From positions 36,312-100,311 of the forward strand of contig JBKCNM010000032.1 in assembly GCA_046297395.1 (NCBI GenBank): a DNA stretch of 64,000 bases, read 5' to 3'. The notes beneath the pieces are model-generated. The model saw nothing but the letters and a program-made list of their open reading frames with translations. It did no database searches and was not told the origin of the DNA. Positions 3,251 through 47,882 of the stretch are shown one piece after another. The position numbers and the translations under genes were made by a program. Source of the stretch: Bacteroidota bacterium (lineage in GTDB: Bacteria; Bacteroidota; Bacteroidia; UBA4408). Numbering within the stretch: position 1 is the stretch's first letter; each line of letters begins with the position of its first letter.

Positions 3251-4174
3251 TCAGCGAAGCCTGCTTCTTCTGATCAGGTATTCCGAAAGTACAGGTTCAA
3301 AACCCCTGGCAACATCCACTTCCACAAGGTCTATTCTATATTGGGCACACCTGTTCCGGATGCTATCCATAAAGGCCTCCATACGGGACACATAACTTGC
3401 CCTTACCTCGGTAGGATTGAGTTGCATTTTTTCTCCGGACTCCAGATCCACAAACTTGTATGGCCTGTTCTCAAAAGCAAATGCACGCTCGGTATGCCGG
3501 TCGGCTACATGAAAAAGTATGACCTCATGCCGGTTATGCCTCAGGTGCTGAAGAGCTGAAAAAACTGACTCAAACTCGCCGCCTGTTTCGAGCATATCTG
3601 TGAACATGATTACCAGAGAGCGTTTGTGTATGGTTTCAGCCAGGCGATGCAGGGCATCATGTATATGGCTTTGTCCCTGCTGGGGGGTATTGAATTGTAG
3701 GGTAAACGGTTCGAGGTAACTGTAAATCAACTGTTGATGAATCATGCTCGAACGGGCAGGGGTTTCAATCTTAGTATCACCAGAAAAAATGGTTAATCCG
3801 AAGGCATCTCTCTGCGCCCTGAACAATTGGACAAGAGCTGCCATAGCCTTTACAGAGAAAGACAACTTGTTTTCGTCCTGCCAGAAATCACGAATAGCCG
3901 GATAATACATTGAAGGAGATACATCCAAGACAAGCCTGCAACGGAGATTGGTTTCCTCTTCAAACTGCTTTACAAACAATTTTTCTGTGCGGCCGTATAG
4001 CTTCCAATCTATATGCCGGGTTGGCTCTCCTGTATTGTAAAGGCGATGCTCAGCAAATTCAACTGAGAAACCATGGAAAGGACTTTTATGCAAGCCTGTG
4101 ATGAAACCCTCTACCACCTGCCTGGCGAGCCACTCCAACCTGGAGAACCGGTTTACTTCCTGTTTGTAAAGCAT
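3251..4174 (-). CDS. DUF58 domain protein (vWA-like, MoxR-associated family)
   Basis: MLYKQEVNRFSRLEWLARQVVEGFITGLHKSPFHGFSVEF is the hallmark DUF58 N-terminus. The ORF-track start at 4204 is a GTG extension; ATG at 4174 fits family N-termini. Confidence 0.8.
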   Translation of the reverse strand: MLYKQEVNRFSRLEWLARQVVEGFITGLHKSPFHGFSVEFAEHRLYNTGEPTRHIDWKLYGRTEKLFVKQFEEETNLRCRLVLDVSPSMYYPAIRDFWQDENKLSFSVKAMAALVQLFRAQRDAFGLTIFSGDTKIETPARSSMIHQQLIYSYLEPFTLQFNTPQQGQSHIHDALHRLAETIHKRSLVIMFTDMLETGGEFESVFSALQHLRHNRHEVILFHVADRHTERAFAFENRPYKFVDLESGEKMQLNPTEVRASYVSRMEAFMDSIRNRCAQYRIDLVEVDVARGFEPVLSEYLIRRSRLR

Positions 4175-4205
4175 TTTTGGATGCGTAAAAGTAATACATG
4201 ACACG

Positions 4206-4245
4206 AAAAAAACAGGGACCGGCTGTTGAGCCGATCCCTGTAACT
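4206..4245 (-). terminator. putative rho-independent terminator downstream of trxA
   Basis: Imperfect hairpin ACAGGGAcCGGC…GCCGaTCCCTGT followed by a U-run on the minus strand (A-run gaaaaaaa on the plus strand). Confidence 0.4.
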
Positions 4246-4287
4246 AATCAACTAATGGACTTCATCACGCGAAATCCATTACCCGAT

Positions 4288-4608
4288 TCAAACAATTTGT
4301 GCTTCAAGTTTTTGGGCAAGCACGGATTTGGGTACTGCACCCACCTGCTTGTCAACAACCTGTCCGCCTTTAAATATGAGTAGCGTAGGAATGTTTCTGA
4401 TACCAAATCGCGCAGAAATTCCGGAATTTGCATCCACATCAACTTTGCCTACAACTGCTTTTCCTGCGTAATCATTAGCCAATTCATCAACAATCGGTCC
4501 AACCATGCGGCATGGTCCACACCATTCTGCCCAAAAATCAACCAATACAGGTTTGTCTGAATGAATGACCAATTCATCAAAATTGGAGTCTGTTAGTTCG
4601 AGTGCCAT
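4288..4608 (-). CDS. trxA: thioredoxin
   Basis: WCGPC active site. N-terminus MALELTDSNFDELV typical of TrxA. ATG at 4608 preferred over the upstream extension. Confidence 0.9.
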   Translation of the reverse strand: MALELTDSNFDELVIHSDKPVLVDFWAEWCGPCRMVGPIVDELANDYAGKAVVGKVDVDANSGISARFGIRNIPTLLIFKGGQVVDKQVGAVPKSVLAQKLEAQIV

Positions 4609-4723
4609 AGCTTCTTGTTTCGGGCTCAAAAGTAGAAAGGGGGGTACATTTTCACAAATGAATTCTGCTAACTAACCTTTAAGACTTTGGTTTATTGTCC
4701 TTTACGTATTTTTAGCCCTCTCA

Positions 4724-6124
4724 ATGCCAGAAAATATGATACAAAATATTGATAATGTGATAATTACAGACATTACCGAAGAGGGGAAAGGCCTTGGGCG
4801 TCATGAAGATAAGGTGGTTTTTGTGACGGGCGCTTTGCCGGGTGACCGGGTAAATGTGAGGGTCAGAAAGCACAAAAAAAATTTCATTGAAGCTGATATT
4901 CAATCATTTGAATCTAAGTCAACAGATCGCATCAATCCCAGGTGCAAGCATCTTCCCTTGTGCGGGGGGTGTAAATGGCAAGATTGGGATTATCCTGCCC
5001 AACTGAGGCACAAAGAAAAGTATGCCCGGGAACAACTGAAAAGAATAGGAAAGATTACTGAGGTGGAATATCTGCCCATCAAGGGTGCCAAAGAGATTTT
5101 TGCATACCGCAACAAACTGGAGTTTTCCTTTACCTCCAACAGGTGGTTGTTTGCAGAAGAGATGGGTGATACCCCGATGGAGAAAAACGCACTTGGGTTT
5201 CATGTTCCGGGAAGATTTGACAAAATTTTTGGTGTAGAGGAATGTCATCTCATGGCTCCCATTCACAACCGCATCCGCAACAAAGTATATGAAATTGGCA
5301 TCAGCATGGGCCTTGGATTCCACAACCCAAAAACAAAAGAAGGTTATTTGAGAAACCTGATTCTTCGTAACAGCAGAAGCGGTCAATGGATGCTTACGCT
5401 GGTGGTGGGACACGAAGATCGGAAAAGTGCAGAGGACTTGCTGCAAAAGATCAAGGATTGCTTTCCGGAAATCAGCAGTATATACTATATCATCAACACA
5501 AAAAAGAACGACTCGGTTACAGATTTACCTTGCATTCACTTCTCCGGCGCTCATTATATTGAGGAAAAATTGGGTAAGCTCACTTTCCGTATCAGCCCCA
5601 ACTCCTTCTTTCAAACCAATCCTTCACAGGCTGAAATTCTTTACGAACTGGTGGAGCGCATGCTCGAACCGGATGGAAACCAGGTACTGTATGACCTCTA
5701 TTCGGGAACAGGCAGCATTGGCTTATACCTGGCAGGGGGTGTCAAGAAAATTGTTGGTATTGAGTATGTACAGCAGGCTGTAGACGATGCCTATGCAAAC
5801 GCAGCACTTAATGGAATTCGGCATGCCTCCTTTTTTGCAGGCGACCTGAAATCATTGCTCTCCCCTTCACTTTTTGAGCAGTTTGGGAAACCGGATGTAA
5901 TTGTTACCGATCCGCCCAGGTCGGGTATGCACCCTGAAGTGGTTCAGCAGATTATTCAATCGGAAGCAAAAACTTTGGTGTATGTTAGTTGTAATGTAGC
6001 CACGCAGGCAAGAGACATCGCTTTGCTGATGCCTTATTATATTCCAGTGTTGTCAGGCGCAGTTGATATGTTCCCACATACTGGACATATGGAAAATGTT
6101 GTTAAACTCATCCGCAGAAATTAG
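4724..6124 (+). CDS. rlmD: 23S rRNA (uracil-5-)-methyltransferase RlmD/RumA (TRAM + SAM methyltransferase)
   Basis: N-terminal TRAM domain, Fe-S cysteines (CKHLPLCGGCKWQ), C-terminal class I methyltransferase motifs (DLYSGTGSIG, DPPR). Confidence 0.85.
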   Translation: MPENMIQNIDNVIITDITEEGKGLGRHEDKVVFVTGALPGDRVNVRVRKHKKNFIEADIQSFESKSTDRINPRCKHLPLCGGCKWQDWDYPAQLRHKEKYAREQLKRIGKITEVEYLPIKGAKEIFAYRNKLEFSFTSNRWLFAEEMGDTPMEKNALGFHVPGRFDKIFGVEECHLMAPIHNRIRNKVYEIGISMGLGFHNPKTKEGYLRNLILRNSRSGQWMLTLVVGHEDRKSAEDLLQKIKDCFPEISSIYYIINTKKNDSVTDLPCIHFSGAHYIEEKLGKLTFRISPNSFFQTNPSQAEILYELVERMLEPDGNQVLYDLYSGTGSIGLYLAGGVKKIVGIEYVQQAVDDAYANAALNGIRHASFFAGDLKSLLSPSLFEQFGKPDVIVTDPPRSGMHPEVVQQIIQSEAKTLVYVSCNVATQARDIALLMPYYIPVLSGAVDMFPHTGHMENVVKLIRRN

Positions 6125-10918: not shown

Positions 10919-11998
10919 TTATTTTATTACCTGTAATTTCTGTCTGTACACTTCGCCCCTGCTTCCGGTAATAAGCATTTGATAACAGCCGGAGGGGATG
11001 TTATCAAGAGACAAGTGATTGGTTCCGGGGACAACCGTGTAGGTAGCAATCCTTTTTCCGCAGAGATCGAAGATGCGGAGAGATCCTAGATCATTGTTCA
11101 GTGGAGATTCTAAGGTAATGCCTGATGTTGCAGGATTGGGAAAGCAGGAAAACACAGCGTTTTGTTTTTCTGCCAATCCTGTAAGAATACCGCTTCCATT
11201 AAATACTTTGGCTCTTGTTACATTATTTGTATTTGGATCAACTTCGAATTCAGCAACTAAATAAGGCGTTCCGTTTCTTACCCATGAGTAGCTAATCACA
11301 GTGTCGGTGGGGAAGAAGACAATGATTGTATCATTTAACAGACTATCGATGAAGTCAAAATAGAGGGAATCCGCACTTACACGGGTTTGTTTAACCCTTA
11401 AACAATCGTAAAAAATTCCGGCAGGACCATTAAAGGTGCCGCTTGCATCCACTTCAAAAAACTGATATGTTGTACGATGAATGCTGATATTGGCTTGCAG
11501 GCCGGAATCGTAAATGGCAGGATAGACAAAACTGAACGAATGATCTACCTGAGAGCCCGGGGACAAAGGTGCAGGCATGAGGCACTGTCCACCCACAAAG
11601 TTGATGGTATCGAAGGGAGAAGATGATGCAAGTGAAAGTACACCTTGCATGTAAAAACCGGTGGCGTTTGAAATAAGGGGATAAGCAACAGAATCTGTAA
11701 AACTAAAAATTCCAAACTCCGCATTGGGGAAATAAGTAGAAAATTGGAAAGGGATTTGGGATGGATTGCTAAAAAACTGGGCAGAACTATCCTCGATATT
11801 GATGGATGTGGCGTAATCCCAGATTTGATTCAGGCCCGGAGAGGTAATTGTGAGAGCGGAGGTATCGGGGTTGTTATCGATAAATTCAAACAAAAAATCT
11901 CCCGCATTGGGTAGGTTTGATGGAAGAAGTGTTTGAGCGTTGGAAGTAAAAATCACGCCTAATAGAGCAAAGGTGAAAAATAGTTTTAGGGTTTTCAT
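10919..11998 (-). CDS. secreted protein with T9SS C-terminal sorting domain (type A CTD)
   Basis: Signal peptide MKTLKLFFTFALLGVIFTSNAQ. C-terminal ~80 aa (…LSLDNIPSGCYQMLITGSRGEVYRQKLQVIK) matches the Por_Secre_tail pattern. Confidence 0.75.
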   Translation of the reverse strand: MKTLKLFFTFALLGVIFTSNAQTLLPSNLPNAGDFLFEFIDNNPDTSALTITSPGLNQIWDYATSINIEDSSAQFFSNPSQIPFQFSTYFPNAEFGIFSFTDSVAYPLISNATGFYMQGVLSLASSSPFDTINFVGGQCLMPAPLSPGSQVDHSFSFVYPAIYDSGLQANISIHRTTYQFFEVDASGTFNGPAGIFYDCLRVKQTRVSADSLYFDFIDSLLNDTIIVFFPTDTVISYSWVRNGTPYLVAEFEVDPNTNNVTRAKVFNGSGILTGLAEKQNAVFSCFPNPATSGITLESPLNNDLGSLRIFDLCGKRIATYTVVPGTNHLSLDNIPSGCYQMLITGSRGEVYRQKLQVIK

Positions 11999-12059
11999 GG
12001 TTTTTAAATGAGTCATGGCAAATGTATCAAAATATGGCATTTGCTTGTATTTTTGGCAC

Positions 12060-13103
12060 ATGTTAAAATACGGGTTTCTATTTGTTTTTCTCTTCCCCTC
12101 GATGGGCTTAATGGCTCAGAACACGGAGCCGCACCTCAGAAATATTCGTCAACTCACCTACGGTGGAGACAACGCTGAGGCATATTTCAGTTTTGACAAC
12201 CAGCATCTGTGTTTTCAAAGTAACAATCCCAAATGGAATCTCTCCTGCGACCAGATTTTCGATCTTTCTATTGACAAAGCTCTTGCAGATACTTCCTACC
12301 ATCCGCCTATGATCAGTGATGGAAGGGGACGAACCACCTGTTCTTATTTTTTAAAAAACGGACATGTTTTATTTGCCAGTACTTCTCATTTGCAAAAAGA
12401 TTGTCCTCCCCCACCGGCGCCCAGAGAAGACAAAAAATACCTTTGGGCACTGTATCCATTCGACATATTTGTGGCAGATGGAACAGGAAAAATTGTGAAC
12501 CGTCTCACCTCTGAAAAAGGATCTGATGCGGAAGCCACTGTATCTCCTGATGGAAAAAAAATTGTTTTCACAAGTGACCGAAGTGGCGACCTTGAACTGT
12601 ACACCATGGATGTTGATGGAAAAAATGTAAAACAGATTACCGATCAGCCCGGATATGATGGCGGGGCTTTTTTTAGTCCTGATGGAAAAAAACTGGTTTT
12701 TCGTGCCTCCAGACCGCAACCCGGAAAGGAACTAGACGAATATAAAGCCTTACTCCGTGAGGGATTGGTTGCACCTACCAACATGGAAATTTTCACTTGT
12801 AATGTAGACGGATCTGACCTCAAACAGGTTACGAAACTTGGAAAGGCCAACTGGGCACCATTTTTTCATCCCGGAGGAAAGAAAATTATTTTCTCTTCTA
12901 ACCACAACAGCAGCAGGGGCTACAACTTCAATCTTTTTATGATTAATGCCGACGGAACAGGCCTCGAACAAATTACTGCGGAAAGCAATTTCAATGCTTT
13001 TCCTATGTTTTCGTATGATGGAAAGAAACTGGTTTTCTCAAGCAACAGAAACAATCACGGAACGAGGGATACCAATCTTTTTATTGCCGACTGGGTCGAA
13101 TGA
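12060..13103 (+). CDS. PD40/WD40-like beta-propeller repeat protein (TolB-like periplasmic)
   Basis: Signal peptide. Repeated …SPDGKK(I/L)VF…DG… PD40 motifs (at least 5 copies). Confidence 0.8.
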   Translation: MLKYGFLFVFLFPSMGLMAQNTEPHLRNIRQLTYGGDNAEAYFSFDNQHLCFQSNNPKWNLSCDQIFDLSIDKALADTSYHPPMISDGRGRTTCSYFLKNGHVLFASTSHLQKDCPPPPAPREDKKYLWALYPFDIFVADGTGKIVNRLTSEKGSDAEATVSPDGKKIVFTSDRSGDLELYTMDVDGKNVKQITDQPGYDGGAFFSPDGKKLVFRASRPQPGKELDEYKALLREGLVAPTNMEIFTCNVDGSDLKQVTKLGKANWAPFFHPGGKKIIFSSNHNSSRGYNFNLFMINADGTGLEQITAESNFNAFPMFSYDGKKLVFSSNRNNHGTRDTNLFIADWVE

Positions 13104-33447: not shown

Positions 33448-36066
33448 TTGAAAAATCGTTTTATATACCGGTGTTTACTGACCATCATGCCGGTCGCCTT
33501 TCTGTTAGGGGCATGTTCTGTTAAAAAGAACACCCTTATTAGCCGCAATTTTCATCAACTTTCTACCCATTACAACGGCTGGTTCTACACCAACGAAATC
33601 ATCAATACAGCGGTGGAGAAAATGCAATCCTCACACAAGGACAATTACAATAAAATTCTTCCCCTCTATATATATGGAAGCATTGAGGACGGCAAAAGCA
33701 TGACTTCGGATATGGAAAAAGCCTTCAAGAAAATATCCACTTGTATCCAGCGTCATTCAATGTTAATCCGCGACCAGCAGTACAACCCATGGATATATGA
33801 TTCGTATATCCTTGTTGGAAAAACCCATTTCTACAAACACGATTACTTTGCCGGACTGGAGTCTTTTGAGTATGTATCTTCCAGAACCAAGGGGAAGCCT
33901 GTGCGTTATGAAGCCATGTTATGGATGCTCCGTACCTACAATGAAACCGGCCTTTTTTCGAGCAGCCAGGGACTCATTGACCTCATGGCGGAGCAAAAGA
34001 AAATTCCACGCAAATACCTTAAGGATTATTACGGATTGGTGGCAGATTACAACATTAAAATCCGAAATTATCCTCAGGCAGTGAAGGCGCTTGCCAAAAC
34101 CATTCCGCTCATGCGCCGCGGCAAGGAAAAGGCCAGGTTTTATTTTGTGCTCGCGCAACTTTACAGAAAAACGGGGCAGGCACAATTTGCGGCTACCTGC
34201 TACGGAAGAGCCATGAAAATGACACCCGACAACGAAATGCAATTTCAGGCGAAAATGAAACTTGCAGGCAGTGTGGCACCCGGTGGCAGCACCAAAGAGG
34301 TAAAAAAACTCCTTGCCCGCATGTTGAAAAGCGAGAAGTATAGCGATTTCAAGGACCAAATCTATTATGCTCTCTCTCAGGTGCACCATGCAGAAGCAAA
34401 TTTTGAAGAAGAAAAAACCGATCTGATGAACTCAGTAAAATACTCTCAAAAAAATAAAAATCAAAGGGGAATGTCTGCGCTGGCCCTCGCAAATTTGCTT
34501 TTTGAAACCGGAAATTATCCATTATCTGAAAACTATTACGACACAGCTATTGCGGCCTTACCCGCAGATTTTGAAGACATTGAACAGATTAAAAACAAGA
34601 AAGCAAATTTATCTGCGCTGGTAGGTCATATTCGAACCGCACAGACCCAGGACTCTCTGCTCAGACTTTCGGAGATGGGAGAAGAACAGAGAAATGTGTT
34701 CATCGACAAAATGATTGACAAACTCAAAAAGGAAGAAGAGCGGGCCATGCGGGAGCTCGAAGCCGGTCAAAATAACCAGAACGGAATATTTACGCCAACG
34801 GTGAGCAACAACAATCAACCAAGCGGCGCAACCTGGTATTTCTATAACCCTGCTGCCCTGAGCCTTGGCTTTACTGAGTTCATTAAAAAGTTCGGAAACC
34901 GAAAACTGGAAGACAATTGGAGGCGCAGCAACAAACCTGCCGTGGCAGATGAAAGCACACAACAAAACCCAGAAAAAGAAGGAGGCAAATCAGGCTCCAA
35001 TGCTTCCTCTGGAAGCAAAGACTCGACAATCACAACAAGCTCAGTAAAAACCCGCAAGGAATATCTTCAGGACATTCCTCTTACCCCTGAAAAAAAGAAA
35101 TCCTCCTCCAATTCTGTAAAAAATTCCCTGTTTAACATGGGTTTGATTTATCGTGAACAACTTGGTGACAACAGACATGCTGCTGAGGCATTTGAAAAAA
35201 TCATTAAAAAATTCCCGGGAGATTCCCTTGAATGCATCTGCTATTACTATCTCTTCAGAATTTATACCCAGCAAGGTGATGACAAAGAATCTGCCAAATA
35301 CAAGCAGCTCATTCTCGACAAATATGGACAAACAGAATATGCTGCGCTGATTAAAAATCCTGATTTTAATCTTGAGAAAAATGCCAAGCTGAATGCTTCG
35401 GATATTTATTACACAGAAACATTTGACCTGTTTAAAAATGAGCTTTATGACAGTTGTTACAAACGCTGCACGGTCGCCGATAGTCTTTTTCCAAAATCCG
35501 AAAATACCCCCAGATATGCCCTCTTGAAAGCCATGTGCAAAGGAAAGATAGGAGGTAAAGACGATATGATCCTGTCTTTAAAACAGGTGATGGCTGACTT
35601 TGGCTCTCATCCTGTAAAAAACAGGGCAGCCGAAATCATTGAACTTCTTGAGGGAGGCGCTAAGGATAAAAAAGATACCACTGCCAAAGAAATCTATCTA
35701 GATCCTACCAACTCAGCACAGCTCTTCCTGATGGTGATAAAAAATTCCTCAGGAGATCTTAACCACCTGAAAACAATCATATCTGAATTCAACGGAACCA
35801 ATTTTGGTTCATCCCAACTGAACACAGAAGACATGCTGCTGGGCAAGGAATACAAAGCAATTTCGGTAAAAGAATTCAAAGACATGGAAAAAGGCATGGT
35901 GTATTTCAACCAGATTAAAAACACCAAGGGCCTGACAGAAGGGATGAGCCCTGAAAACTTTATCATGCTGATGATTACTCCAGATAATTTGAGGATTTTG
36001 TTCAAGGAGAACAAGCCCCTCGAGTACAAAACTTTTTTTGAGAAAAAATACCCGAAAGGGATATAA
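33448..36066 (+). CDS. TPR-repeat lipoprotein, SprE/PorW-like (possible T9SS/gliding accessory)
   Basis: Lipoprotein signal peptide (…FLLGAC), N-terminal TPR repeats, central S/N/Q-rich low-complexity linker, 872 aa (SprE-sized). TTG start. Assignment to SprE/PorW is an inference. Confidence 0.7.
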   Translation: MKNRFIYRCLLTIMPVAFLLGACSVKKNTLISRNFHQLSTHYNGWFYTNEIINTAVEKMQSSHKDNYNKILPLYIYGSIEDGKSMTSDMEKAFKKISTCIQRHSMLIRDQQYNPWIYDSYILVGKTHFYKHDYFAGLESFEYVSSRTKGKPVRYEAMLWMLRTYNETGLFSSSQGLIDLMAEQKKIPRKYLKDYYGLVADYNIKIRNYPQAVKALAKTIPLMRRGKEKARFYFVLAQLYRKTGQAQFAATCYGRAMKMTPDNEMQFQAKMKLAGSVAPGGSTKEVKKLLARMLKSEKYSDFKDQIYYALSQVHHAEANFEEEKTDLMNSVKYSQKNKNQRGMSALALANLLFETGNYPLSENYYDTAIAALPADFEDIEQIKNKKANLSALVGHIRTAQTQDSLLRLSEMGEEQRNVFIDKMIDKLKKEEERAMRELEAGQNNQNGIFTPTVSNNNQPSGATWYFYNPAALSLGFTEFIKKFGNRKLEDNWRRSNKPAVADESTQQNPEKEGGKSGSNASSGSKDSTITTSSVKTRKEYLQDIPLTPEKKKSSSNSVKNSLFNMGLIYREQLGDNRHAAEAFEKIIKKFPGDSLECICYYYLFRIYTQQGDDKESAKYKQLILDKYGQTEYAALIKNPDFNLEKNAKLNASDIYYTETFDLFKNELYDSCYKRCTVADSLFPKSENTPRYALLKAMCKGKIGGKDDMILSLKQVMADFGSHPVKNRAAEIIELLEGGAKDKKDTTAKEIYLDPTNSAQLFLMVIKNSSGDLNHLKTIISEFNGTNFGSSQLNTEDMLLGKEYKAISVKEFKDMEKGMVYFNQIKNTKGLTEGMSPENFIMLMITPDNLRILFKENKPLEYKTFFEKKYPKGI

Positions 36067-36224
36067 AAAAGTGGGTAAGTACAATTTATCGCACCGCTCA
36101 ACCTCTTATCCTTGCTACATTCCTGTCCTGGGGAGTTTGGGAGGGAGCTGGTCGTAAACGACTTACCCGGCACAAAAATAGAAAACTTTTGTTGTCATGC
36201 AGTATTGTCTTGCATTACTTTGGT

Positions 36225-36761
36225 ATGTTTGCAAGTATGAAAGATGTGGGTTTATTCGCAAATTATGGCACGCTTGCCGGACTCCTGGCTTCATTGGTTT
36301 TTGTATTGATGTGCTTGGCAGGAATCAATCCTTTCGAAGGTGCCTCAATTGCCATCTCTGTCATTCCTGTAGCTTTTATCTATCAGGGAACACGCAAAGC
36401 AAGAGAGCGTGAGTCGCATGAGTTTTCATACGGAAAAGCATTTAAAGCCGGTTTGTACATTGCTTTTTTTTATGCTTCACTTTATGCTGTTCTCATCTAC
36501 ATTTATCTTCAATTTTACGGAGATGCCATTGTTGAGGAAACAAAAAACAGCACCCTCGATAAGCTGGAATTACTGGAAGGAAAGCTGGGATCATCGATGT
36601 ATGAAAAGGCAGTTGATGGAGTGGAAAAAATATCTGCCGGAAATCTTGCCCTTGGTCGTTACTGGAACAACCTCATCTGGGGTGTCATTGTTTCACTTGT
36701 CACCTCTGCCCTACTCAAAAAGAAAACAGATCCTTTTAGTCAAACAGAATCCGAAAATTGA
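36225..36761 (+). CDS. DUF4199 membrane protein
   Basis: Four TM helices with a conserved pattern. Characteristic Bacteroidota partner of the downstream GT2 gene. Confidence 0.7.
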   Translation: MFASMKDVGLFANYGTLAGLLASLVFVLMCLAGINPFEGASIAISVIPVAFIYQGTRKARERESHEFSYGKAFKAGLYIAFFYASLYAVLIYIYLQFYGDAIVEETKNSTLDKLELLEGKLGSSMYEKAVDGVEKISAGNLALGRYWNNLIWGVIVSLVTSALLKKKTDPFSQTESEN

Positions 36762-39119: not shown

Positions 39120-39209
39120 GGTGAGGTGCCTGAGAGGCCGAAAGGAACAGTTTGCTAAACTGTCGTACGGGTAACCGTACCGAGGGTTCGAATCCCTCCC
39201 TCACCGCCA
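39120..39209 (+). tRNA. tRNA-Ser (anticodon GCT)
   Basis: Acceptor stem GGTGAGG/CCTCACC. Anticodon stem ACAGT…ACTGT with loop TTGCTAA. Long variable arm (class II). T-arm GAGGGTTCGAATCCCTC. Encoded CCA. Confidence 0.85.
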
Positions 39210-39216
39210 CCAAACA

Positions 39217-39241
39217 TCGCCCGAAAGGGCGTTATTTTTTT
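39217..39241 (+). terminator. rho-independent terminator after tRNA-Ser
   Basis: GCCCGAAAGGGC hairpin followed by a T7 run. Confidence 0.7.
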
Positions 39242-39345: not shown

Positions 39346-39391
39346 ATCCCTCCCTCACCGCCACCAAACATCGCCCGAAAGGGCGTTATTT
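39346..39391 (+). repeat. 46-bp perfect direct repeat of the tRNA-Ser 3' end plus terminator hairpin (copy 2; copy 1 at 39192-39237)
   Basis: Identical string ATCCCTCCCTCACCGCCACCAAACATCGCCCGAAAGGGCGTTATTT occurs twice, 154 bp apart. The intervening DNA contains a degenerate tRNA-like 5' half (GTGAGGTG…). Confidence 0.85.
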
Positions 39392-39450
39392 CCCATTAAG
39401 ACAGGATGTTCGTTAATGTAATATATCGGCAAACAAAAAGTGTTTGATTA

Positions 39451-39480
39451 AATAAAAAAAGCCGGACTATGTCCGGCTTT
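39451..39480 (-). terminator. bidirectional rho-independent terminator downstream of gldJ
   Basis: GCCGGAC-TAT-GTCCGGC hairpin flanked by an A-run and a T-run. Confidence 0.7.
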
Positions 39481-39497
39481 CTCTTTTTGCATTTCTG

Positions 39498-41042
39498 TTA
39501 TTTCTTCACATTTGCACCCAATCCTGCAGGGCTACCTACCCTGTCCATGGCGCAACGGAAACCGAGCCAATTGGTGGATTGTTTCTCATCAAGAAAGCGC
39601 CTTGTGCCGGGATTCATATAATACGCTCTGTCTTTCCAGCTGCCTCCTTTGTATACCCTGGCTTTGTCGTCAACCATGGATGATTTTGCGTATTCATACA
39701 TACCCATAGATTCTTTCTTTTCGGGATCAGGAACTGCTTTCCAGTCTTCAATCGCCTGCGACTGAATATCACCATCAAGATAATTGATGTTATCTGCTCT
39801 TTTGTAATTTCTACGCTCAGCGAGGTTGTCCTTCTCAACAGTTACATCTCTCCACTTCAACTGTCCGGGTATGCCAGTGATATTACCTGAGGAATCTGTA
39901 GTTACTTCTTCTAGTTTGGCATCAACTTTTCCTTCATCATCAAGAACCTTTGTCTTAAACACATTGCCTCTGAATGGACGGAAATCAGCTTTGTCTTCAC
40001 CACTGAGAGGACGATAAACATCCATCACCCATTCGCTTACATTGCCTGCCATGTTGTAAAGGCCAAAATCATTTGGCCAATAGGCAAGAACTGGAGAAGT
40101 GATATCAGCATTGTCGTTGAGCGCACTGGCAACACCCATATTGTCGCCTCTGCTTCTTTTAAAGTTGGCCATCATGCGACCAATATGAATCTCCTGATCG
40201 TTACGAACATAGTGACCATTCCAGGGATAAATACGACGCTCACTGATAATTTCATCGTTGGTATTACCTATGAAAGAGAGCGCTGCATATTCCCATTCCG
40301 CCTCGGTGGGCAGTCTGTAGTTAGGCAAAAGCATCCCATCTTCCATGCGTACTTTTCTTTCTCCGGCGCCTTTTGGATTGAGGTCAGGCAAAAGTCTTTG
40401 AACGGTTCCTTCATACTGTCCTGCAAGATAGGCATCGGTGTTAAAAGAGTTTTGGTTGGACCAATTCGCCGGATCCCATTGGAGGATTCCTTCTCTTACA
40501 AGAATCATTTCGTTTACACGATCTGTACGCCAGGTACAATAGTTGGAAGCCTGTAGCCAGTTTACACCAACGACGGGATAATTGGAGTAGGCGGGATGTC
40601 TCAGATAATATTCAACATAGGGTTCGTTATATCCGAGTCTTTCTCTCCATACCAAGGTATCGGGGAGCGCCTTTTTGAGCACTTCCGGAAAATCTGTTCC
40701 GTAAACACTTCTTAGCCAATAAAGATATTCTCTGTAGTTTGAGTTGGTAACCTCTGTTTCGTCGATATAAAAAGATGAAACAGTAACCTTTCTTGGGATA
40801 TTGTTCCAATCATACATCACATCTTGTTCAACCCTTCCCATGGTAAATGATCCGCCTTCAACAAGAACAAGTCCGGGACCTGTTTCCTGTTCCACATATG
40901 GAAGTTTTTCAAAACCACCATTGTCGGGAGAATTGTAATCCCAGCCTGTGGCATTGGATTTGTCTTTGCTGCAAGAGGCCAAGGTGATTGCAACGATGGC
41001 CAGGGAGAGCAACCCTTTGAACCCTGTGTTTTTCATTGTCAT
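39498..41042 (-). CDS. gldJ: gliding motility lipoprotein GldJ (FGE-sulfatase-like domain)
   Basis: Lipoprotein signal (…ITLASC). N-terminal region closely matches GldJ (…GLVLVEGGSFTMGRVEQDVMYDWNNIPRKVTVSSFYIDETEVTN…), i.e. a formylglycine-generating-enzyme-like fold. ~515 aa. Confidence 0.8.
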   Translation of the reverse strand: MTMKNTGFKGLLSLAIVAITLASCSKDKSNATGWDYNSPDNGGFEKLPYVEQETGPGLVLVEGGSFTMGRVEQDVMYDWNNIPRKVTVSSFYIDETEVTNSNYREYLYWLRSVYGTDFPEVLKKALPDTLVWRERLGYNEPYVEYYLRHPAYSNYPVVGVNWLQASNYCTWRTDRVNEMILVREGILQWDPANWSNQNSFNTDAYLAGQYEGTVQRLLPDLNPKGAGERKVRMEDGMLLPNYRLPTEAEWEYAALSFIGNTNDEIISERRIYPWNGHYVRNDQEIHIGRMMANFKRSRGDNMGVASALNDNADITSPVLAYWPNDFGLYNMAGNVSEWVMDVYRPLSGEDKADFRPFRGNVFKTKVLDDEGKVDAKLEEVTTDSSGNITGIPGQLKWRDVTVEKDNLAERRNYKRADNINYLDGDIQSQAIEDWKAVPDPEKKESMGMYEYAKSSMVDDKARVYKGGSWKDRAYYMNPGTRRFLDEKQSTNWLGFRCAMDRVGSPAGLGANVKK

Positions 41043-41130
41043 ACAATGATGTTTTGAATTAAAACGCAAATTAATGGTATTTATTGCTGATTATCAAGTG
41101 CCTTTTTAACGGAGAGATCCGACAAAAGGT

Positions 41131-42099
41131 TTAGAAAGTGGGGCAATTAACTGTGTTAAATACCTTTCTTTTCTTTCTGCAATAGAATTGAAAAGAGGCT
41201 GTTAACTCGTGAGAGCCATATCCACCACGGAGTTTGGAGATGGTCACATCATAGCTGTATCCTATTTTGAAGATGTTGTATCTGAAGCCAACAAGTGTAA
41301 TCAGGGCATCTCTGTTTCTGTACCAGAGACCACCTACGAATGGTCCTTTGGTAAAATACATTCCAAGATTGAGCTGTTGAAATGTCCCTTGCATCTGATA
41401 AATCACATTGGGAGATAAGTTGATGTCATCGTCCTCGCCCACAGGTATAATGGCCCCAATGTGACCGGTATACTTTCGGTAGAGGCGGGAATTATTGGCG
41501 CTTCCTGTCTTGATAAAAGCTTCATCCGGTTCTGCAAGATGGTGTACTGCTATTCCGCCAAAGAAATTGTTCCCAAAACCCATAATTCCTGCTGAAAAAT
41601 CTGCAAAGGAGCGATTGTTTCTGGCGAATCTTTCGTTGGTATTATAAATGAATCCATAACGGGAATGAATTTGATCAGGAAAGTTCATTCGGGAAGGATC
41701 AATGGTGCGCTGGACAAAGGTTGCTTGTATGGCTGCACGAATTGAAAATGAACGATTTACATTGATTTGATAGGAGTAAATACCGGATACTGAATTGGTA
41801 TTGATGGTTCCATTTCCCATTCTGTCGCTGTAGGCAATTACGCCAATACCACCGCCCAGATCATCAACATGTCTGTCGAATGTAGCTGCGTAGGTCACAT
41901 AGTTACCAATCACTCCGGGCCATTGGTTGCGATAGGTAGTAACCACTCTGGGACAACGGACAGAGCCGGCAAATGCAGGATTTAGGAAAAGGGGGTTGGC
42001 ATAAAATTGCGAAAAGTGCAAATCTTGTGCCTCCACTTTAAAAGTGATTGACTGAACAAGAATTACCAGTGGCAACAGGATTTTGATTCCCTTCATCAT
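41131..42099 (-). CDS. T9SS membrane protein, PorP/SprF family
   Basis: Signal peptide, then the family hallmark QDLHFSQFYANPLFLNPAFAG. ~320-aa beta-barrel-like body. ATG at 42099; the ORF-track N-terminal extension is antisense to porU. Confidence 0.8.
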   Translation of the reverse strand: MMKGIKILLPLVILVQSITFKVEAQDLHFSQFYANPLFLNPAFAGSVRCPRVVTTYRNQWPGVIGNYVTYAATFDRHVDDLGGGIGVIAYSDRMGNGTINTNSVSGIYSYQINVNRSFSIRAAIQATFVQRTIDPSRMNFPDQIHSRYGFIYNTNERFARNNRSFADFSAGIMGFGNNFFGGIAVHHLAEPDEAFIKTGSANNSRLYRKYTGHIGAIIPVGEDDDINLSPNVIYQMQGTFQQLNLGMYFTKGPFVGGLWYRNRDALITLVGFRYNIFKIGYSYDVTISKLRGGYGSHELTASFQFYCRKKRKVFNTVNCPTF

Positions 42100-42202
42100 T
42101 TTTTTCGAAACAACAAATTTATTATTTTTTTGGTTAGACAATAACATATGTCGAATTTCGTTCTGATAAATCACAAAAAAAGTTGATGTGCTCTCGAAGT
42201 TT

Positions 42203-45200
42203 ATGGTTTTAAAACCTTCCATTGTCAATATTATTGTGTGCTGCCTTTGCGTTTCTGCAGGTTCGATGCTGGCACAAACCAAGGTTAAAATCACTTTGAA
42301 CTGGGAAAAACCTGCAATGATGGGTGTTGAAGGCTTCATGAAGCCGGGCATGAGGTTCAGAGATTTTTGTCAGCCTGTTCAGATTAACAACTGCTGGATT
42401 CCTGAATATCAGCGCAGCCTCACCAATTTCCCTGCACATGGGTCATCGCAATTGATTAATCCGATTGTTGAACCCCTCACCGAAGAGGAGCAGCTTACAC
42501 TCACAGGCTGCAATGAGCTTCCGGAAAATTTTGAGGTTTTTACTAGTACCGGTTTAGAACGAGGAAAAAACATCCAGTTCATCAGGATGATACCAATCCG
42601 ACAGCAGAAAGGCAGAAATCCCGAAAAGCTAAAGAGTGCCACATTGCTATTTAGTAATCCCCAACCTACCGGTGAACAGAAAAGAGTGCGCACATTTGCC
42701 ACATCATCTGTTCTTAAGCAAGGCAAATGGTATCGGATTGGAATCACATCCGATGGCGTTTATAAATTGGATTATCGTTTCATAAAAAACACATTGGGTG
42801 TAGATCCTACTCAGATTAATCCACAACACATCCGGGTGTACGGCAATGGTGGAGGCCTGCTGCCTTTTTTAAATTCTGTCAGTCGTCCCGACGATCTTGT
42901 TGAAAATGCAATCAGGGTAGAAGGTGAATCTGATGGAATCTTCGATTCCACAGATTTCGTCTGGTTTTTTGGGCAAGGTCCGCATGTTTGGGTTCCCTCA
43001 GCAGGTTGTATTCCCCTCTCTCATCGTCTGCACTATTTCAGTGACACCAGCTATTACTACATCAATTTCGATACAGGTCCGGGTAAACGGATGAACAGAA
43101 CACCCTACAACGACAACAGTACATCGGTTAGCATTACAAAATTTGATGAATTTCAATACTACGAAAATGAAGCTGTAAACCTACTCTTATCAGGAAGGCG
43201 TTGGTTTGGAGAGAAGTTTGAAAATATTCCTGAATACACCTTCGATTTCAATTTTCCGAACATCAGCACAAACGATTCTGCAACAGTAAAGGCAGTTGTT
43301 ATGGCAAGATCAAAACCACAAAGCAGCTTCACACTTTCCTGCCAGAATTCCTCAAGAGAGATAAAACCTCCCATCATTGACCCCGGGGTTTACTACAGTG
43401 CTTATGGTAGAATTGACTCAGGATGTGTGAAATTGCTGCCAAACCAGCAAAAGCTTACTGTTAAGTTAGCTTTCAATAAAAACCCCTTGTTTGCCTCTGC
43501 CGTCGGCTACCTCGATTACCTTGAGGTTCATGCAATCAGACAATTAAGGATGTTCGGCAATTATCTTCAATTTCGGAGTCTGAGCACAGTTGCTCCCGGG
43601 CAGCAAGGAAAATTTATCATTGGTGATGCTTCAGCCACAAGCATTGTTCTAGATGTAACAAATCCACTTGAACCTTTTTTAATTGAAGGCAGAGTGGATG
43701 GCAATCAGCTGGTTTTTCATGCAGATGTTTCCGCCCTCAGGGAATATGTTGCGTTTAACCCTTCATCCAATGCATTAAAAACGCCGGTGTATTTTGGCGA
43801 AACATCCAATCAAGACTTGCATGGCAGTAATCCTGTTGACTTGATCATGGTTGTTCATCCGCTTTTTTGGGAACAAGGCCTCCGAATCAAAAGATTGCAT
43901 GAAACCAATGATGGTTTGAGGGTACTCATGGCAACTCCGCAAATGATTTACAACGAATTTTCATCAGGCAAACAAGATATCACTTCAATCAAATCTCTTG
44001 CAAAATTGTTTTATGACAAAGCTGCCACCCCCGCTGATCAGCCCAAATACCTTTTGCTTTTCGGGGATGCCAGCTATAACAACAAGAATCGCACAAAAAA
44101 CGGAAATACGGATTTCATTCCCAGCTACCAAAGTGAAGAATCTCTGGCCATGATTTTTTCATATGTGAGCGATGATTATTTTGGCTTGCTCGACGACAAT
44201 GAAAGCGACATGCTTTCAAGTCCCATAGACATTGGCATCGGTCGTTTGCCGGTTAAAACGGCCGAGGAAGCAAAAAATGTTACTGATAAAATCATTCAGT
44301 ATGAAACTTTAAAATACCCCGAGAATGCGCTGCAATCCAATAATTGCAACAGCACAGGACTTGCGGTGAATGGCGATTGGAAGAACACGGTTTGTTTTGT
44401 AGCCGACGACCAGGACAACGGCATTCACATGATGGATGCCGACCGATTGGCAACATTTGTGGATACTACACACAAAGTATACAACATCGAAAAAATTTAT
44501 ACTGATTTTTACAAACAGTTCACCAGTGCCGGTGGACAGAGATATCCTGATGCCAATAGTGCCATTAACCAGCGTGTACAGCGTGGTGCTTTGATTGTAA
44601 ATTACACAGGACATGGGAGTGAAGCAGGATGGGCACAAGAAAGAATACTGGAGGTAAAGGATATTCTCTCATGGAAAAACGAAGAGAGGAATCCGTTTTT
44701 TGTGACAGCCACCTGCGAGTTTTCCAGATTTGATGATCCACTGAGAACATCTGCAGGTGAGGATGTAATCCTTCAGGCAGGGGGTGGCGGAATTGGTTTG
44801 CTTACTACCACAAGACTGGTGTATTCCGGGCCCAACTTTACCCTGAACAACAATTTTATCTCCAACGCATTTGTGATTGATTCTACCACCGGAAAATTTT
44901 ATACCCTTGGCGATTTAACCCGCATCACAAAAAATATCAGTGCTACGCAGAATCCCAACAGCAACAACCACCGCAATTTTACCCTACTTGGTGATCCTGC
45001 AATGCGACTCAATTATCCCCAGAAAAAAATCACCACAACATCCGTGAAACTGATACCATCATCAAGTACTTCAGACACACTAAGGGCTTTGAGTAAAGTG
45101 GAAGTGACAGGATATGTAACAGATGAAAACGGGATCAAATTGAGCAATTTTAACGGGTTTGTTTACCCCAGCATATTCGATAAAAAATCCATCATCCGCA

Positions 45201-46114
45201 ACCTCAGGAACGACAGCACAGGTTCTGACCAAACGCCTCGGAGAAACTTTTCCGTTCAAAAAAACATTTTATACAAAGGAAAGGTGAGTGTTACCAATGG
45301 AGAATTCAGTTTTGTATTTGTGGTACCTAAGGACATTGCCTATAATTTTGGGAAGGGTAAAGTGTCCTATTATGCCATCTCTAAAAATATAGATGCAAAT
45401 GGTTATTTTGATGATTTTATCATTGGGGGAACAAATACAAATGCCCCCACTGACAACTCCGGACCTGAAATTAAATTATTTATGAATGATGATAAGTTTA
45501 TAGCAGGGAGTATTACCGATGAAAATCCGCGACTGATTGCTTACATCAGTGATGAAAACGGAATCAATACGGTCGGCTCAGGTATCGGCCATGATATTGT
45601 TGCTTCACTGAATGAGAACAATCAAAGCAGCATTGTACTAAACGACTATTACCAGTCTGATCTGAACAGTTACCAATCTGGCAGTATTCAATATCCTTTT
45701 AAAGACCTCGCGGAAGGCAATTATACTTTGTCGCTTAAAGTTTGGGATGTATACAATAATTCCGGCAAAGGCAAGACAGAGTTTACAGTTGCTCGCTCCG
45801 CCAAGCTTGCCCTCGATCATGTGATGAATTATCCGAATCCGTTTACCACCCGCACCCGTTTTCTTTTTGAGCACAACAGACCTTGTGAGCCACTGGATGT
45901 GCTGATTCAGATCTTTTCAGTTTCAGGAAAGCTGGTAAAAAGCATCGAGTCCAGCATCCAATGTGAAGGGTATCGCTCAGACAAAATAGAATGGGACGGA
46001 AGAGACGATTTTGGAGATAAAATCGGAAAAGGAGTATATATATACCGAATACAGGTTACTGCTTCAGATGGAAACAGCGCCGAAAAATTTGAAAAACTTG
46101 TGATCTTAAATTAA
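42203..46114 (+). CDS. porU: T9SS sortase PorU (C25 gingipain-family peptidase)
   Basis: Signal peptide. C25 peptidase core with catalytic His (NYTGHGSE) and Cys (TATCEFSRFDD). C-terminal CTD-like beta-sandwich. ~1300 aa, typical of PorU. Immediately followed by porV. Confidence 0.8.
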   Translation: MVLKPSIVNIIVCCLCVSAGSMLAQTKVKITLNWEKPAMMGVEGFMKPGMRFRDFCQPVQINNCWIPEYQRSLTNFPAHGSSQLINPIVEPLTEEEQLTLTGCNELPENFEVFTSTGLERGKNIQFIRMIPIRQQKGRNPEKLKSATLLFSNPQPTGEQKRVRTFATSSVLKQGKWYRIGITSDGVYKLDYRFIKNTLGVDPTQINPQHIRVYGNGGGLLPFLNSVSRPDDLVENAIRVEGESDGIFDSTDFVWFFGQGPHVWVPSAGCIPLSHRLHYFSDTSYYYINFDTGPGKRMNRTPYNDNSTSVSITKFDEFQYYENEAVNLLLSGRRWFGEKFENIPEYTFDFNFPNISTNDSATVKAVVMARSKPQSSFTLSCQNSSREIKPPIIDPGVYYSAYGRIDSGCVKLLPNQQKLTVKLAFNKNPLFASAVGYLDYLEVHAIRQLRMFGNYLQFRSLSTVAPGQQGKFIIGDASATSIVLDVTNPLEPFLIEGRVDGNQLVFHADVSALREYVAFNPSSNALKTPVYFGETSNQDLHGSNPVDLIMVVHPLFWEQGLRIKRLHETNDGLRVLMATPQMIYNEFSSGKQDITSIKSLAKLFYDKAATPADQPKYLLLFGDASYNNKNRTKNGNTDFIPSYQSEESLAMIFSYVSDDYFGLLDDNESDMLSSPIDIGIGRLPVKTAEEAKNVTDKIIQYETLKYPENALQSNNCNSTGLAVNGDWKNTVCFVADDQDNGIHMMDADRLATFVDTTHKVYNIEKIYTDFYKQFTSAGGQRYPDANSAINQRVQRGALIVNYTGHGSEAGWAQERILEVKDILSWKNEERNPFFVTATCEFSRFDDPLRTSAGEDVILQAGGGGIGLLTTTRLVYSGPNFTLNNNFISNAFVIDSTTGKFYTLGDLTRITKNISATQNPNSNNHRNFTLLGDPAMRLNYPQKKITTTSVKLIPSSSTSDTLRALSKVEVTGYVTDENGIKLSNFNGFVYPSIFDKKSIIRNLRNDSTGSDQTPRRNFSVQKNILYKGKVSVTNGEFSFVFVVPKDIAYNFGKGKVSYYAISKNIDANGYFDDFIIGGTNTNAPTDNSGPEIKLFMNDDKFIAGSITDENPRLIAYISDENGINTVGSGIGHDIVASLNENNQSSIVLNDYYQSDLNSYQSGSIQYPFKDLAEGNYTLSLKVWDVYNNSGKGKTEFTVARSAKLALDHVMNYPNPFTTRTRFLFEHNRPCEPLDVLIQIFSVSGKLVKSIESSIQCEGYRSDKIEWDGRDDFGDKIGKGVYIYRIQVTASDGNSAEKFEKLVILN

Positions 46115-46145
46115 GCATTACTCAAAACCATATCTTTGTCAGACC

Positions 46146-47390
46146 ATGTTGAATCCTCTTTTTCCTTTGAAAAAAACCGCTAAAATCACCATCCTTTTTT
46201 TAATGGCTGTTGGTGGTTCCTTTGCACAAAAAGCCACAAATACCCAGCTCGCCAGTGATAAGCTTCAGATTAATACCATCACCACAGCTGTTCCTTTTTT
46301 ACTCATCGGGCCGGATTCAAAGGCGGGCGGAATGGGTGAAACAGGAGTTGCTACCGAAGCAGATTGTAATTCCATGCACTGGAATCCTGCAAAGTATGCG
46401 TTTATAGAAAAACAAAGTGGGTTCTCGCTTTCTTATATTCCATGGTTGAGACAATTGGTAGACGACATCAATCTTTCTTATTTGTCAGGATATTACAAGG
46501 TGGGAAAAGACCAGACACTGGCTGCTTCCCTTCGCTATTTTTCTCTCGGAAATATCATGTTCACTGATAATAATGGAACGAACATCAGGGAATTCCGTCC
46601 CAATGAATTTGGTTTGGATGTGGCATACTCGCGCAAACTTTCGGACCGTGTTTCAGGTGGATTAGCCCTTCGATATGTCTATTCCAACCTCACAGGAGGC
46701 ATCAATGTGGCAGGTGCAAATACAAAAGCCGGCCAATCGGTTGCGGCAGATGTATCATTCCTTTATCAAAACACCGATATGGAAATAAATGGAAACAAGA
46801 GTAGACTTGCCTTTGGTGCAAACATTTCCAATATCGGTTCAAAGATGTCCTACACCACTACCCTTCGCAGAGACTTTATTCCAGTTAATATGAGACTTGG
46901 GGGCTCTTTCCGACTGAACATGGACCAGTACAATGCAATTGCCATTCATCTTGATTTCAATAAACTTTTGGTACCTACACCTCCTGTTTATGAAGTGGAT
47001 GCAAGCGGAAAAATTGTTACCGGCCCGGATGGTACTCCTAACATTGCTGCCGGAGAAAATCCACACAGGTCTTTGGCTTCAGGAATTTTCGGTTCATTTT
47101 CTGATGCTCCCGGTGGCAGCCGAGAGGAACTGAGGGAGGTAATGACAAATGTGGGATTGGAATATTGCTACGACAACCTTTTTTCTTTCCGTACAGGCTA
47201 TTTTCATGAAAATGTTACGAAGGGTAACAGACAGGTTTTTACAGTAGGATTTGGCATTCGCTACAGCTCCTTTAACTTCGATGCATCCTATTTAATTCCC
47301 ACCAACCGACAAAACAGTCCACTGAACAATACCTTTCGGTTCACACTGGGATTTGATTTCGGTGAAAGCAAAAAGAAATCCAAAGAATAA
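46146..47390 (+). CDS. porV: T9SS outer-membrane shuttle protein PorV (LptO)
   Basis: Signal peptide. Conserved PorV motif …VPFLLIGPDSKAGGMGETGVA…. 414-aa beta-barrel. Genomic pairing with porU. Confidence 0.8.
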   Translation: MLNPLFPLKKTAKITILFLMAVGGSFAQKATNTQLASDKLQINTITTAVPFLLIGPDSKAGGMGETGVATEADCNSMHWNPAKYAFIEKQSGFSLSYIPWLRQLVDDINLSYLSGYYKVGKDQTLAASLRYFSLGNIMFTDNNGTNIREFRPNEFGLDVAYSRKLSDRVSGGLALRYVYSNLTGGINVAGANTKAGQSVAADVSFLYQNTDMEINGNKSRLAFGANISNIGSKMSYTTTLRRDFIPVNMRLGGSFRLNMDQYNAIAIHLDFNKLLVPTPPVYEVDASGKIVTGPDGTPNIAAGENPHRSLASGIFGSFSDAPGGSREELREVMTNVGLEYCYDNLFSFRTGYFHENVTKGNRQVFTVGFGIRYSSFNFDASYLIPTNRQNSPLNNTFRFTLGFDFGESKKKSKE

Positions 47391-47399
47391 ATTCCTCGG

Positions 47400-47882
47400 A
47401 TGAGAGATATCCGCATAGGTCATGGGTATGATGTACATCAACTCACAGAAGGTCGCAAACTGATTTTGGGCGGGGTAGACATCCCTCATCATAAAGGAGC
47501 ATTGGGGCATTCTGATGCCGATGTACTTCTTCATAGCATCTGTGATGCCTTGCTCGGTGCTCTGGCCTTAGGAGATATAGGCAAACACTTCCCTGATACA
47601 GATGCAAATTTTAAAAACATAGATAGCCGTATTTTGCTGGAAAAGGTCTGCCGACTGGTGACTGATAAAGGATACCTAATTTCAAATATTGATGTATCAC
47701 TTTGTCTTGAGAAACCCAAAGTACTTCCCTATGCCGATGCGATGAAAAAAAACATTGCCGAAATAACCGGGCTCACTGCAGACAGAATATCCATCAAAGC
47801 CACAACCTCAGAAAAGATGGGCTTTGTAGGAAGACAAGAAGGAGTTTTCTGCCACTGCTCAGCCCTCCTCTTTCTGCCCTGA
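47400..47882 (+). CDS. ispF: 2-C-methyl-D-erythritol 2,4-cyclodiphosphate synthase
   Basis: IGHGYDVH…GHSDADV…DIGK motifs. 160 aa. Confidence 0.9.
   Translation: MRDIRIGHGYDVHQLTEGRKLILGGVDIPHHKGALGHSDADVLLHSICDALLGALALGDIGKHFPDTDANFKNIDSRILLEKVCRLVTDKGYLISNIDVSLCLEKPKVLPYADAMKKNIAEITGLTADRISIKATTSEKMGFVGRQEGVFCHCSALLFLP

Follow-up and report, generated by a model that had tools for sequence, protein, structure and literature searches.

A PorP/SprF-family gene between gldJ and porU-porV in uncultured Bacteroidota, and its possible place at the gliding track

Proteins of the PorP/SprF family have been described as PorV-like carrier barrels, and the gene for a carrier usually lies in a cluster with that for its cognate cargo (PMC10202324). 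What, then, does a member of this family do at a locus where no cargo gene adjoins it and its neighbours encode a gliding-track lipoprotein and a sortase? The question is raised by a 64,000-nucleotide stretch of DNA from a Bacteroidota bacterium (GenBank assembly GCA_046297395.1, contig JBKCNM010000032.1, positions 36,312 to 100,311; we refer to the whole stretch as the window and count positions from its first nucleotide). Here a PorP/SprF-family gene, which we call porP, lies between gldJ and the porU-porV pair of the T9SS (type IX secretion system). We find that this arrangement is kept almost throughout a set of related genomes, and that the gene to which porP is bound most closely, and which accompanies it most persistently, is gldJ and not the porU-porV pair. 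Drawing on this linkage and on analogy with studied systems, we hold with roughly even confidence that this PorP is a machinery-linked, track-associated protein, a partner of GldJ rather than a component of the attachment complex.

The gldJ, porP, porU and porV block

The porP gene occupies 41131-42099 on the minus strand and encodes an outer-membrane barrel of 322 amino acids. Its product scores 232.1 bits against TIGR03519 (cut-off 90.55), with an alignment spanning residues 6-305 of the 322, and 207.9 bits against PF11751 (cut-off 22.3), and it has an N-terminal QDxHFSQFY motif. The longest open reading frame extends to 42351. We take 42099 to be the right start because homologues are 315-350 amino acids long, because the model alignment begins at residue 6 and because the product made from this position, which begins MMKGIK, has a signal peptide (MMKGIKILLPLV...).

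Next to porP on the same strand is gldJ (39498-41069), which encodes the gliding-track lipoprotein with the fold of the formylglycine-generating enzyme (FGE). The protein scores 493.6 bits against TIGR03524 (cut-off 458.2) and also matches PF03781. Its reading frame opens at TTG 41069, with ATG 41042 as the likelier start, and it contains the lipobox LASC. The GldK model gives 251.5 bits, under its cut-off of 350, so this GldJ is distinct from GldK; it can be aligned to the PorK structures of Porphyromonas gingivalis.

On the plus strand, porU (42203-46114) encodes a long-form C25-family T9SS sortase (NF033707, 1316 bits; PF01364, 337 bits) with its own C-terminal sorting domain, which matches the type A model TIGR04183 at 27 bits (cut-off 23). 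Its start is either GTG 42188 or ATG 42203. The GHG histidine of the segment NYTGHGSEAGW and the TATC cysteine of the segment FVTATCEF align with a histidine and a cysteine of P. gingivalis PorU (PDB 6za2) that we take to be the catalytic His657 and Cys690. The porV gene (46146-47390, plus strand), for the type A carrier or shuttle barrel, begins 32 nt past the porU stop codon, leaving a gap of 31 nt; its product scores 479.4 bits against NF033710 (cut-off 250) and matches PF19572. After porV comes ispF (YgbB; 47400-47882, plus strand), assigned to PF02542 in related loci and detected by tblastn at the corresponding position in most of them. It is probably a passenger in the porU-porV unit.

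A sequence-only reading of this DNA had named the four genes, placed the 41131-42099 product in the PorP/SprF family, quoted the motifs QDLHFSQFYANPLFLNPAFAG for PorP and VPFLLIGPDSKAGGMGE for PorV together with a His/Cys dyad for PorU, and described a divergent spacer of 88-103 bp. These statements are borne out: profile scores lie above the curated cut-offs for all four genes, both motifs are present in the translations, the dyad aligns with 6za2, and the spacer between porP and porU (42100-42202, bordered by divergent genes), read from the sequence, measures 88 bp to GTG 42188 (42100-42187) or 103 bp to ATG 42203.

Conservation of the block was assessed by a genome scan anchored on PorV, with one genome per species. 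The scan covers the 80 closest relatives, all of them metagenome-assembled genomes of uncultured Bacteroidota; it sampled no Cytophagia, Sphingobacteriia or Flavobacteriaceae, and published locus descriptions were used for Flavobacterium johnsoniae, Cytophaga hutchinsonii and P. gingivalis. The nearest relative is a Flavobacteriales metagenome-assembled genome with a PorV identity of 93%. When the window proteins were mapped onto the 80 loci, 62 were informative and 15 were too short. All but one of the 62 have porP and gldJ running one way and porU and porV the other, in the order found in the window and mostly with ispF next, and three further loci have porP in the expected place at a contig edge. 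The sole exception (L024) has 6 kb upstream of porU without porP or gldJ. Loci reached via PorP homologues of 54-57% identity carry the same block. Because order and orientation are the same in 61 of 62 informative loci, the four-gene grouping is not due to chance. Metagenome-assembled genomes labelled Vicingus or Vicingaceae carry the block.

Across the loci, identity to the window proteins is 59-69% for GldJ, 52-61% for PorV, 45-57% for PorP and 38-50% for PorU. The range for PorP resembles those for PorV and PorU, and PorP thus evolves at about the pace of a core component. The window PorP belongs to a well-conserved group that is nearly always placed in this machinery locus.

Genomic partners of porP

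Within the block, porP and gldJ are co-directional, with porP upstream, and porP and porU diverge. Between the porP stop codon and the gldJ ATG the median distance is 44.5 nt, and 67 of 70 loci have fewer than 100 nt there. In the window, the terminator scan found no terminator-like site between the two genes. One locus alone (L071) has a large insertion, of about 1.5 kb (3284-4774), between porP and gldJ; there porP still adjoins porU.

More distant members of the family were drawn from a search of 1.84 billion cluster representatives, and their genomic context was sampled. In five clusters at 33-46% identity to the window PorP, the gene immediately downstream of porP has its best match among the GldJ models, and in three of the five porP diverges from C25/porU genes. 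Another of the five, L091, reads porP, gldJ, murF in the same direction and has neither porU nor porV. Two sampled clusters (L087 and L089) adjoin PKD/CHU_C type B cargo, and two sampled relatives are orphans with no T9SS neighbours. At L085 (36-7750) and L094 (1-6706), which represent two distant lineages, the gene divergent from porP-gldJ is doubled: two tandem Peptidase_C25 genes, each for a protein of about 1270 amino acids, take the place of porU. At neither locus does the stretch that was read contain porV. This tandem pair may represent PorU and a PorU2-like copy.

The sequence-only reading had stated that PorP/SprF paralogues normally sit beside their cargo and that the gene in the window does not. 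Both statements agree with the sampled loci. Some sampled members adjoin cargo, as just described, and no type B (CHU_C / TIGR04131) cargo gene adjoins porP in the window or in the related loci that were read. A local PorP hidden Markov model run against all open reading frames of the window found no second paralogue, which leaves porP as its only PorP-family gene. PorU was considered as the cargo of this PorP and set aside: its sorting domain is of type A, and P. gingivalis PorU is reported as a partner of PorV.

Two known arrangements resemble the block. In F. johnsoniae, gldJ (Fjoh_1557) lies beside porU (Fjoh_1556) and porV (Fjoh_1555), with no gene between gldJ and porU (PMC7440613). As in the window, gldJ and porU-porV are adjacent on opposite strands there; several of the related loci have a gene for a Mur ligase downstream of gldJ. 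The difference is the PorP/SprF-family gene that separates gldJ from porU in the window and in about 60 related genomes. Since F. johnsoniae has the adjacency of gldJ and porU-porV without porP, that adjacency is independent of porP, and the locus is a one-gene variant of a published neighbourhood whose particular feature is an extra porP upstream of gldJ.

The second arrangement concerns porP itself. In P. gingivalis, porP is co-transcribed with porK, porL, porM and porN, and in C. hutchinsonii sprP (CHU_0170) precedes gldK (CHU_0171) (PMC5445135); PorP is moreover reported to interact with PorK (PMC9143113). Judged by gene order, these loci are like ours in that the gene for a PorP barrel lies directly upstream of one for an FGE-fold lipoprotein of the ring or track, with no cargo in cis. 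They differ in that the downstream gene here is the paralogue gldJ, which is not followed by gldL, gldM or gldN and whose product does not have the tether cysteine discussed below. Because GldJ is a paralogue of GldK and PorK, the pairing of porP with gldJ mirrors that of porP with porK or gldK.

The same neighbourhood had led the sequence-only reading to propose that PorP is the third member of a dedicated PorP-PorU-PorV attachment sub-complex, the genes sharing a divergent control region because their proteins cooperate. Such a sub-complex would account for two facts: porP adjoins porU-porV in 64 of the 65 loci with upstream DNA and in a number of distant lineages, and it lacks cargo in cis. 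It would also be compatible with the finding of Gorasia et al. (2025) that the PorKN rings of P. gingivalis carry the attachment complexes (PMC12365241), an arrangement in which track, attachment complex and PorP could be close to one another. However, porP is on the strand opposite to porU and on the same strand as gldJ, L091 retains porP-gldJ without porU or porV, and F. johnsoniae has gldJ and porU-porV together without porP (PMC7440613). Protein data point the same way. A complex of PorE, PorP and PG1035 forms in P. gingivalis porU and porV mutants (PMC9143113), PorP is missing from the listed PorZ pull-down partners (PMC12365241), and both type B export and the bond between SprF and GldK are independent of PorV (PMC9143113, PMC12635249). 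On these grounds of orientation, locus content and biochemistry the proposal is unsupported, and we regard it as improbable.

If porP and gldJ instead form one transcription unit, as we infer, signals for it might be expected at its two ends. A scan for sigma-70-type promoters found sites no commoner than in shuffled sequence. Within the spacer, TAAATTTG (42114-42121, minus strand) agrees exactly with the Bacteroidota -7 consensus TAnnTTTG. Lying 14 nt upstream of the porP ATG, it is a candidate promoter for porP and perhaps gldJ; it can be called suggestive and not more, because TAnnTTTG has 51 matches across the whole window and is not enriched. No exact TAnnTTTG faces porU within the spacer. 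Beyond the other end of the putative unit, 18 nt past the gldJ stop codon, a GC-rich hairpin with flanking T/A runs (39458-39480, minus strand; inverted repeat 39450-39488) is a candidate terminator. The scan reported this hairpin on the plus strand; because its arms are near-palindromic and A/T runs lie on both sides, it could work in either direction.

Two further sequence elements were seen near these genes. In many loci (L011, L028, L037, L048, L063, L065, L078 and others) a GTATAATTGT or CGTATAA-like element, spotted by eye, lies 25-40 nt upstream of the porP start, and the window holds a weak form of it, TGTTATTG, about 30 nt upstream of the porP ATG. This element could be a variant -7 box (TAnnATTG), or a site for a regulator or for a sigma factor of the extracytoplasmic function (ECF) type. 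In the gap between porU and porV, another exact TAnnTTTG match, TATCTTTG (46131-46138, plus strand), stands 8 nt upstream of the porV ATG. It could serve porV as an internal promoter, or be there by chance.

Barrel fold, cysteines and the GldK track

An AlphaFold2 model of PorP made with 43 homologues has a predicted local distance difference test score (pLDDT) of 80.6 and a predicted template-modelling score (pTM) of 0.77. It shows about 14 strands over residues 51-304, an N-terminal plug-like segment, and a C-terminal tail that is low in confidence and disordered. In a Foldseek search the highest-ranking hit is one chain of 8gl6, the F. johnsoniae T9SS complex (E = 4e-9); at 367 residues long, we take this chain for PorV. 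Next come FadL, TbuX and TodX, and the template-modelling (TM) scores are only about 0.5. The model thus depicts PorP as a PorV/FadL-like, 14-strand outer-membrane barrel of the carrier type, which accords with the published view of the family (PMC10202324). Its likeness to the FadL-like carriers PorV and PorQ lies in the predicted 14-strand barrel and the plug-like segment; it differs from them in that the PorV and PorQ profile models do not match the window PorP sequence and that PorV has no cysteine-containing C-terminal tail. A PDB sequence search with PorP returned no relative and no PorP/SprF chain.

The window PorP has exactly three cysteines, C49, C307 and C319, the last two in the tail ...C307-RKKRKVFNTVN-C319-PTF. 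Without exception, the 120 closest homologues share the ending C-[KR]-x-[KR]3-x-F-[RN]-T-[IV]-x-C-P-[ST]-F, within which C-x11-C-P-[ST]-F is invariant. A C-terminus of the Cys-Pro-x-Phe type is found in 120 of the 150 nearest family representatives (P0121-P0270, about 80%), whatever their genomic context, and 63 have the upstream tail cysteine as well. In the papers cited here, tail cysteines are discussed for close homologues of SprF and for PorG only; given the prevalence of Cys-Pro-x-Phe ends, they may be family-wide and not peculiar to SprF.

In the model, C49 immediately precedes strand 1, and C307 immediately follows the final strand. The two residues tend to occur together: among 157 representatives, 72 have both and 61 have neither, with 1 and 23 in the two mixed classes (Fisher p = 6e-23, uncorrected for kinship). 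Their coupled presence and their positions make an internal C49-C307 disulfide at the barrel seam probable, which would leave C319 free.

A free cysteine in such a tail has a possible partner in the track. Liu et al. (2025) found that the Cys-X-Cys of the SprF C-tail is disulfide-bonded to Cys343 of GldK, that PorG bonds the same GldK cysteine, and that the track is a filament of GldJ, GldK and GldN (PMC12635249). The SprF-GldK linkage forms without PorV, and SprF does not bond GldJ experimentally (PMC12635249). In P. gingivalis the equivalent residue is Cys356 of PorK, in the peptide GCFLGNFK (PMC12365241). Translation of the mutagenesis primers of Liu et al. gives the GldK site as ...DRGC343FMANFKP and the SprF tail as ...SISNC324PC326TQSPV. 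The window GldJ reads IGR298MMANFK at the tether site, with Arg298 where PorK has Cys356 and GldK has Cys343, and in 68 GldJ orthologues this position is Q, E, D, R, A or M, never Cys. For this reason, and because SprF forms no bond with GldJ in experiment, we rejected GldJ as the disulfide partner at that position, which leaves GldK as the candidate. By analogy with SprF, a disulfide tether from C319 to the conserved GldK cysteine is plausible.

SprF is of the same PorP/SprF family as the window protein, is likewise a carrier-type barrel, and has conserved periplasmic C-tail cysteines around an Asn-Cys-Pro. The two differ in genomic context, sprF being part of the sprCDBF operon beside the cargo gene sprB whereas the window porP has no adjacent cargo, and also in the tail: that of SprF continues onward after C324-P-C326, whereas here the cysteines are 11 residues apart and the protein ends three residues after the second. 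PorG resembles the window PorP as an outer-membrane barrel in which one or more periplasmic tail cysteines near the C-terminus (...KPCYCAE in F. johnsoniae) bond the track cysteine, but it belongs to another family, has a smaller, 8-strand barrel and is not a carrier.

Together these comparisons suggest how a track-associated PorP might operate. The locus consists of two conserved divergent units, porP-gldJ and porU-porV (with ispF), and PorP would be made together with GldJ. Its site of action would be the gliding and energising track, in the way that P. gingivalis PorP acts with PorK and SprF with GldK, with C319 of its periplasmic Cys-Pro-x-Phe tail bonding the conserved cysteine of GldK and not GldJ. 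Any type B cargo of this PorP would be encoded elsewhere.

Several observations weigh against a track-associated partner of GldJ. The Asn-Cys-Pro cysteine C319 aligns with SprF Cys324, which is the helper, and not with Cys326, which bonds GldK; the window PorP tail has no vicinal Cys-X-Cys and no equivalent of Cys326. In P0232, one of the homologues linked to gldJ, Trp replaces the terminal Cys, and the co-occurrence statistic for C49 and C307 ignores phylogenetic relatedness. Cargo-linked paralogues bear the same CPxF tail, so the tail is no marker of a gldJ-linked class. Nor does overall sequence mark one. A neighbour-joining tree of 157 family members is star-like, with no resolved clade of gldJ-linked genes, and pairwise identities overlap among gldJ-linked, cargo-linked and orphan members. 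Because neither separates the classes, a single orthologous group beyond about 45% identity is unproven, and on sequence grounds we limit the orthologous group to the window PorP's own, at 45% identity or more. Upstream of porP, an exact TAnnTTTG is present in just 17 of 70 loci. Finally, F. johnsoniae manages without porP at its gldJ and porU-porV locus.

The failure of sequence to separate the classes is also what an ordinary type B carrier would lead one to expect. Under that explanation the cargo gene lies elsewhere, and adjacency to gldJ results only from ancestry or from gliding genes being co-regulated, PorP having no particular part in the machinery. The window protein is a member of the PorP/SprF family with the same tail as the cargo-linked paralogues, and the two orphan relatives have no T9SS neighbours. 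The gene for PG1035, the P. gingivalis protein mentioned above, lies away from porP. PG1035 is a type B partner of PorP (PMC9143113). An ordinary carrier would not, however, be expected to show conservation equal to that of core components across about 60 species, or to recur directly upstream of gldJ in at least six sequence clusters, and cognate carriers usually cluster with their cargo (PMC10202324). We consider ordinary cargo carriage possible but doubtful.

The P. gingivalis data suggest one more function. PorP of that species binds and stabilises PorE, and PorK and PorN co-purify in minor quantities (PMC9143113). The window PorP could thus be the counterpart of the core PorP as a static anchor, binding a PorE-like, peptidoglycan-binding lipoprotein and fixing the apparatus to the cell wall instead of riding or engaging a track in motion. 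In no locus read does a PorE-like gene (TPR, beta-propeller, OmpA_C) adjoin porP, and none was found among the window open reading frames scanned with Pfam and NCBIfam, a scan that left out about 20 frames of at least 150 amino acids, mostly at 1-33 kb. Gorasia et al. moreover propose that carriers which are mobile have no PorE partners (PMC9143113). A static anchor therefore appears quite unlikely.

Surroundings of the block and implications

Two other T9SS genes lie in the window. The porW/sprE lipoprotein gene (33448-36066, plus strand; NF052312, 624.5 bits, cut-off 250) is separated from the block by unrelated genes, and a type A T9SS cargo protein with a C-terminal domain (CTD) is encoded at 10919-12061 on the minus strand (TIGR04183, 31.5 bits over residues 307-376, cut-off 23). 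Both had been recognised in the sequence-only reading, which concluded that a substantial part of the T9SS machinery lies in one stretch. The two genes are indeed there, but that conclusion overstates the case, since none of gldKLMN, sprA, sprT and porQ/Z/G/E was found in the window. Housekeeping genes (dxr, the signal recognition particle (SRP) RNA, an ABC ATPase gene, tRNA-Ser, serS and the RNase Y gene) surround the T9SS genes, along with genes for an M23 peptidase, DUF4199, a glycosyltransferase, IspF, sugar-modifying enzymes, LptD and enolase. As a whole the window is no T9SS island.

Directly after porW/sprE is a small Bacteroidales-type SRP RNA (RF04183, 89.1 bits against 55.2) at 36069-36175 on the minus strand. 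Open reading frames called across this RNA (35694-36173) are for that reason spurious. A DUF4199 membrane protein gene (36189-36761, plus strand) comes next. Between the ABC ATPase gene and gldJ lies a tRNA-Ser(GCT) gene (39120-39209, plus strand), in whose 3' end a 46-nt exact repeat begins (39192-39237 and 39346-39391, copies 154 bp apart). The repeat extends about 28 nt downstream and includes the CGCCCGAAAGGGCG hairpin; it looks like the att-site scar of a lost integrated element, or a local duplication.

What the locus means depends on the function of its PorP. If this is ordinary cargo carriage, the finding shrinks to a synteny variant of the known gldJ and porU-porV neighbourhood. At the other extreme, the gene might represent a widespread, undescribed class of cargo-less PorP that is co-expressed with GldJ, rides the GldJ-GldK-GldN track covalently by its C-terminal cysteine and acts as an outer-membrane adaptor coupling the PorU-PorV complex or the translocon to the track. 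We regard such a class as a long shot; if it exists, a track-riding adaptor would account for the persistent association of gldJ, porP, porU and porV.

Two groups reported in 2025 that the outer-membrane proteins SprF and PorG are disulfide-tethered to the moving GldK/PorK track and that attachment complexes are on the track (PMC12635249, PMC12365241). A conserved PorP that is paired with gldJ, has no nearby cargo and ends in an invariant cysteine tail is a concrete candidate for extending the tether mechanism within the PorP family.

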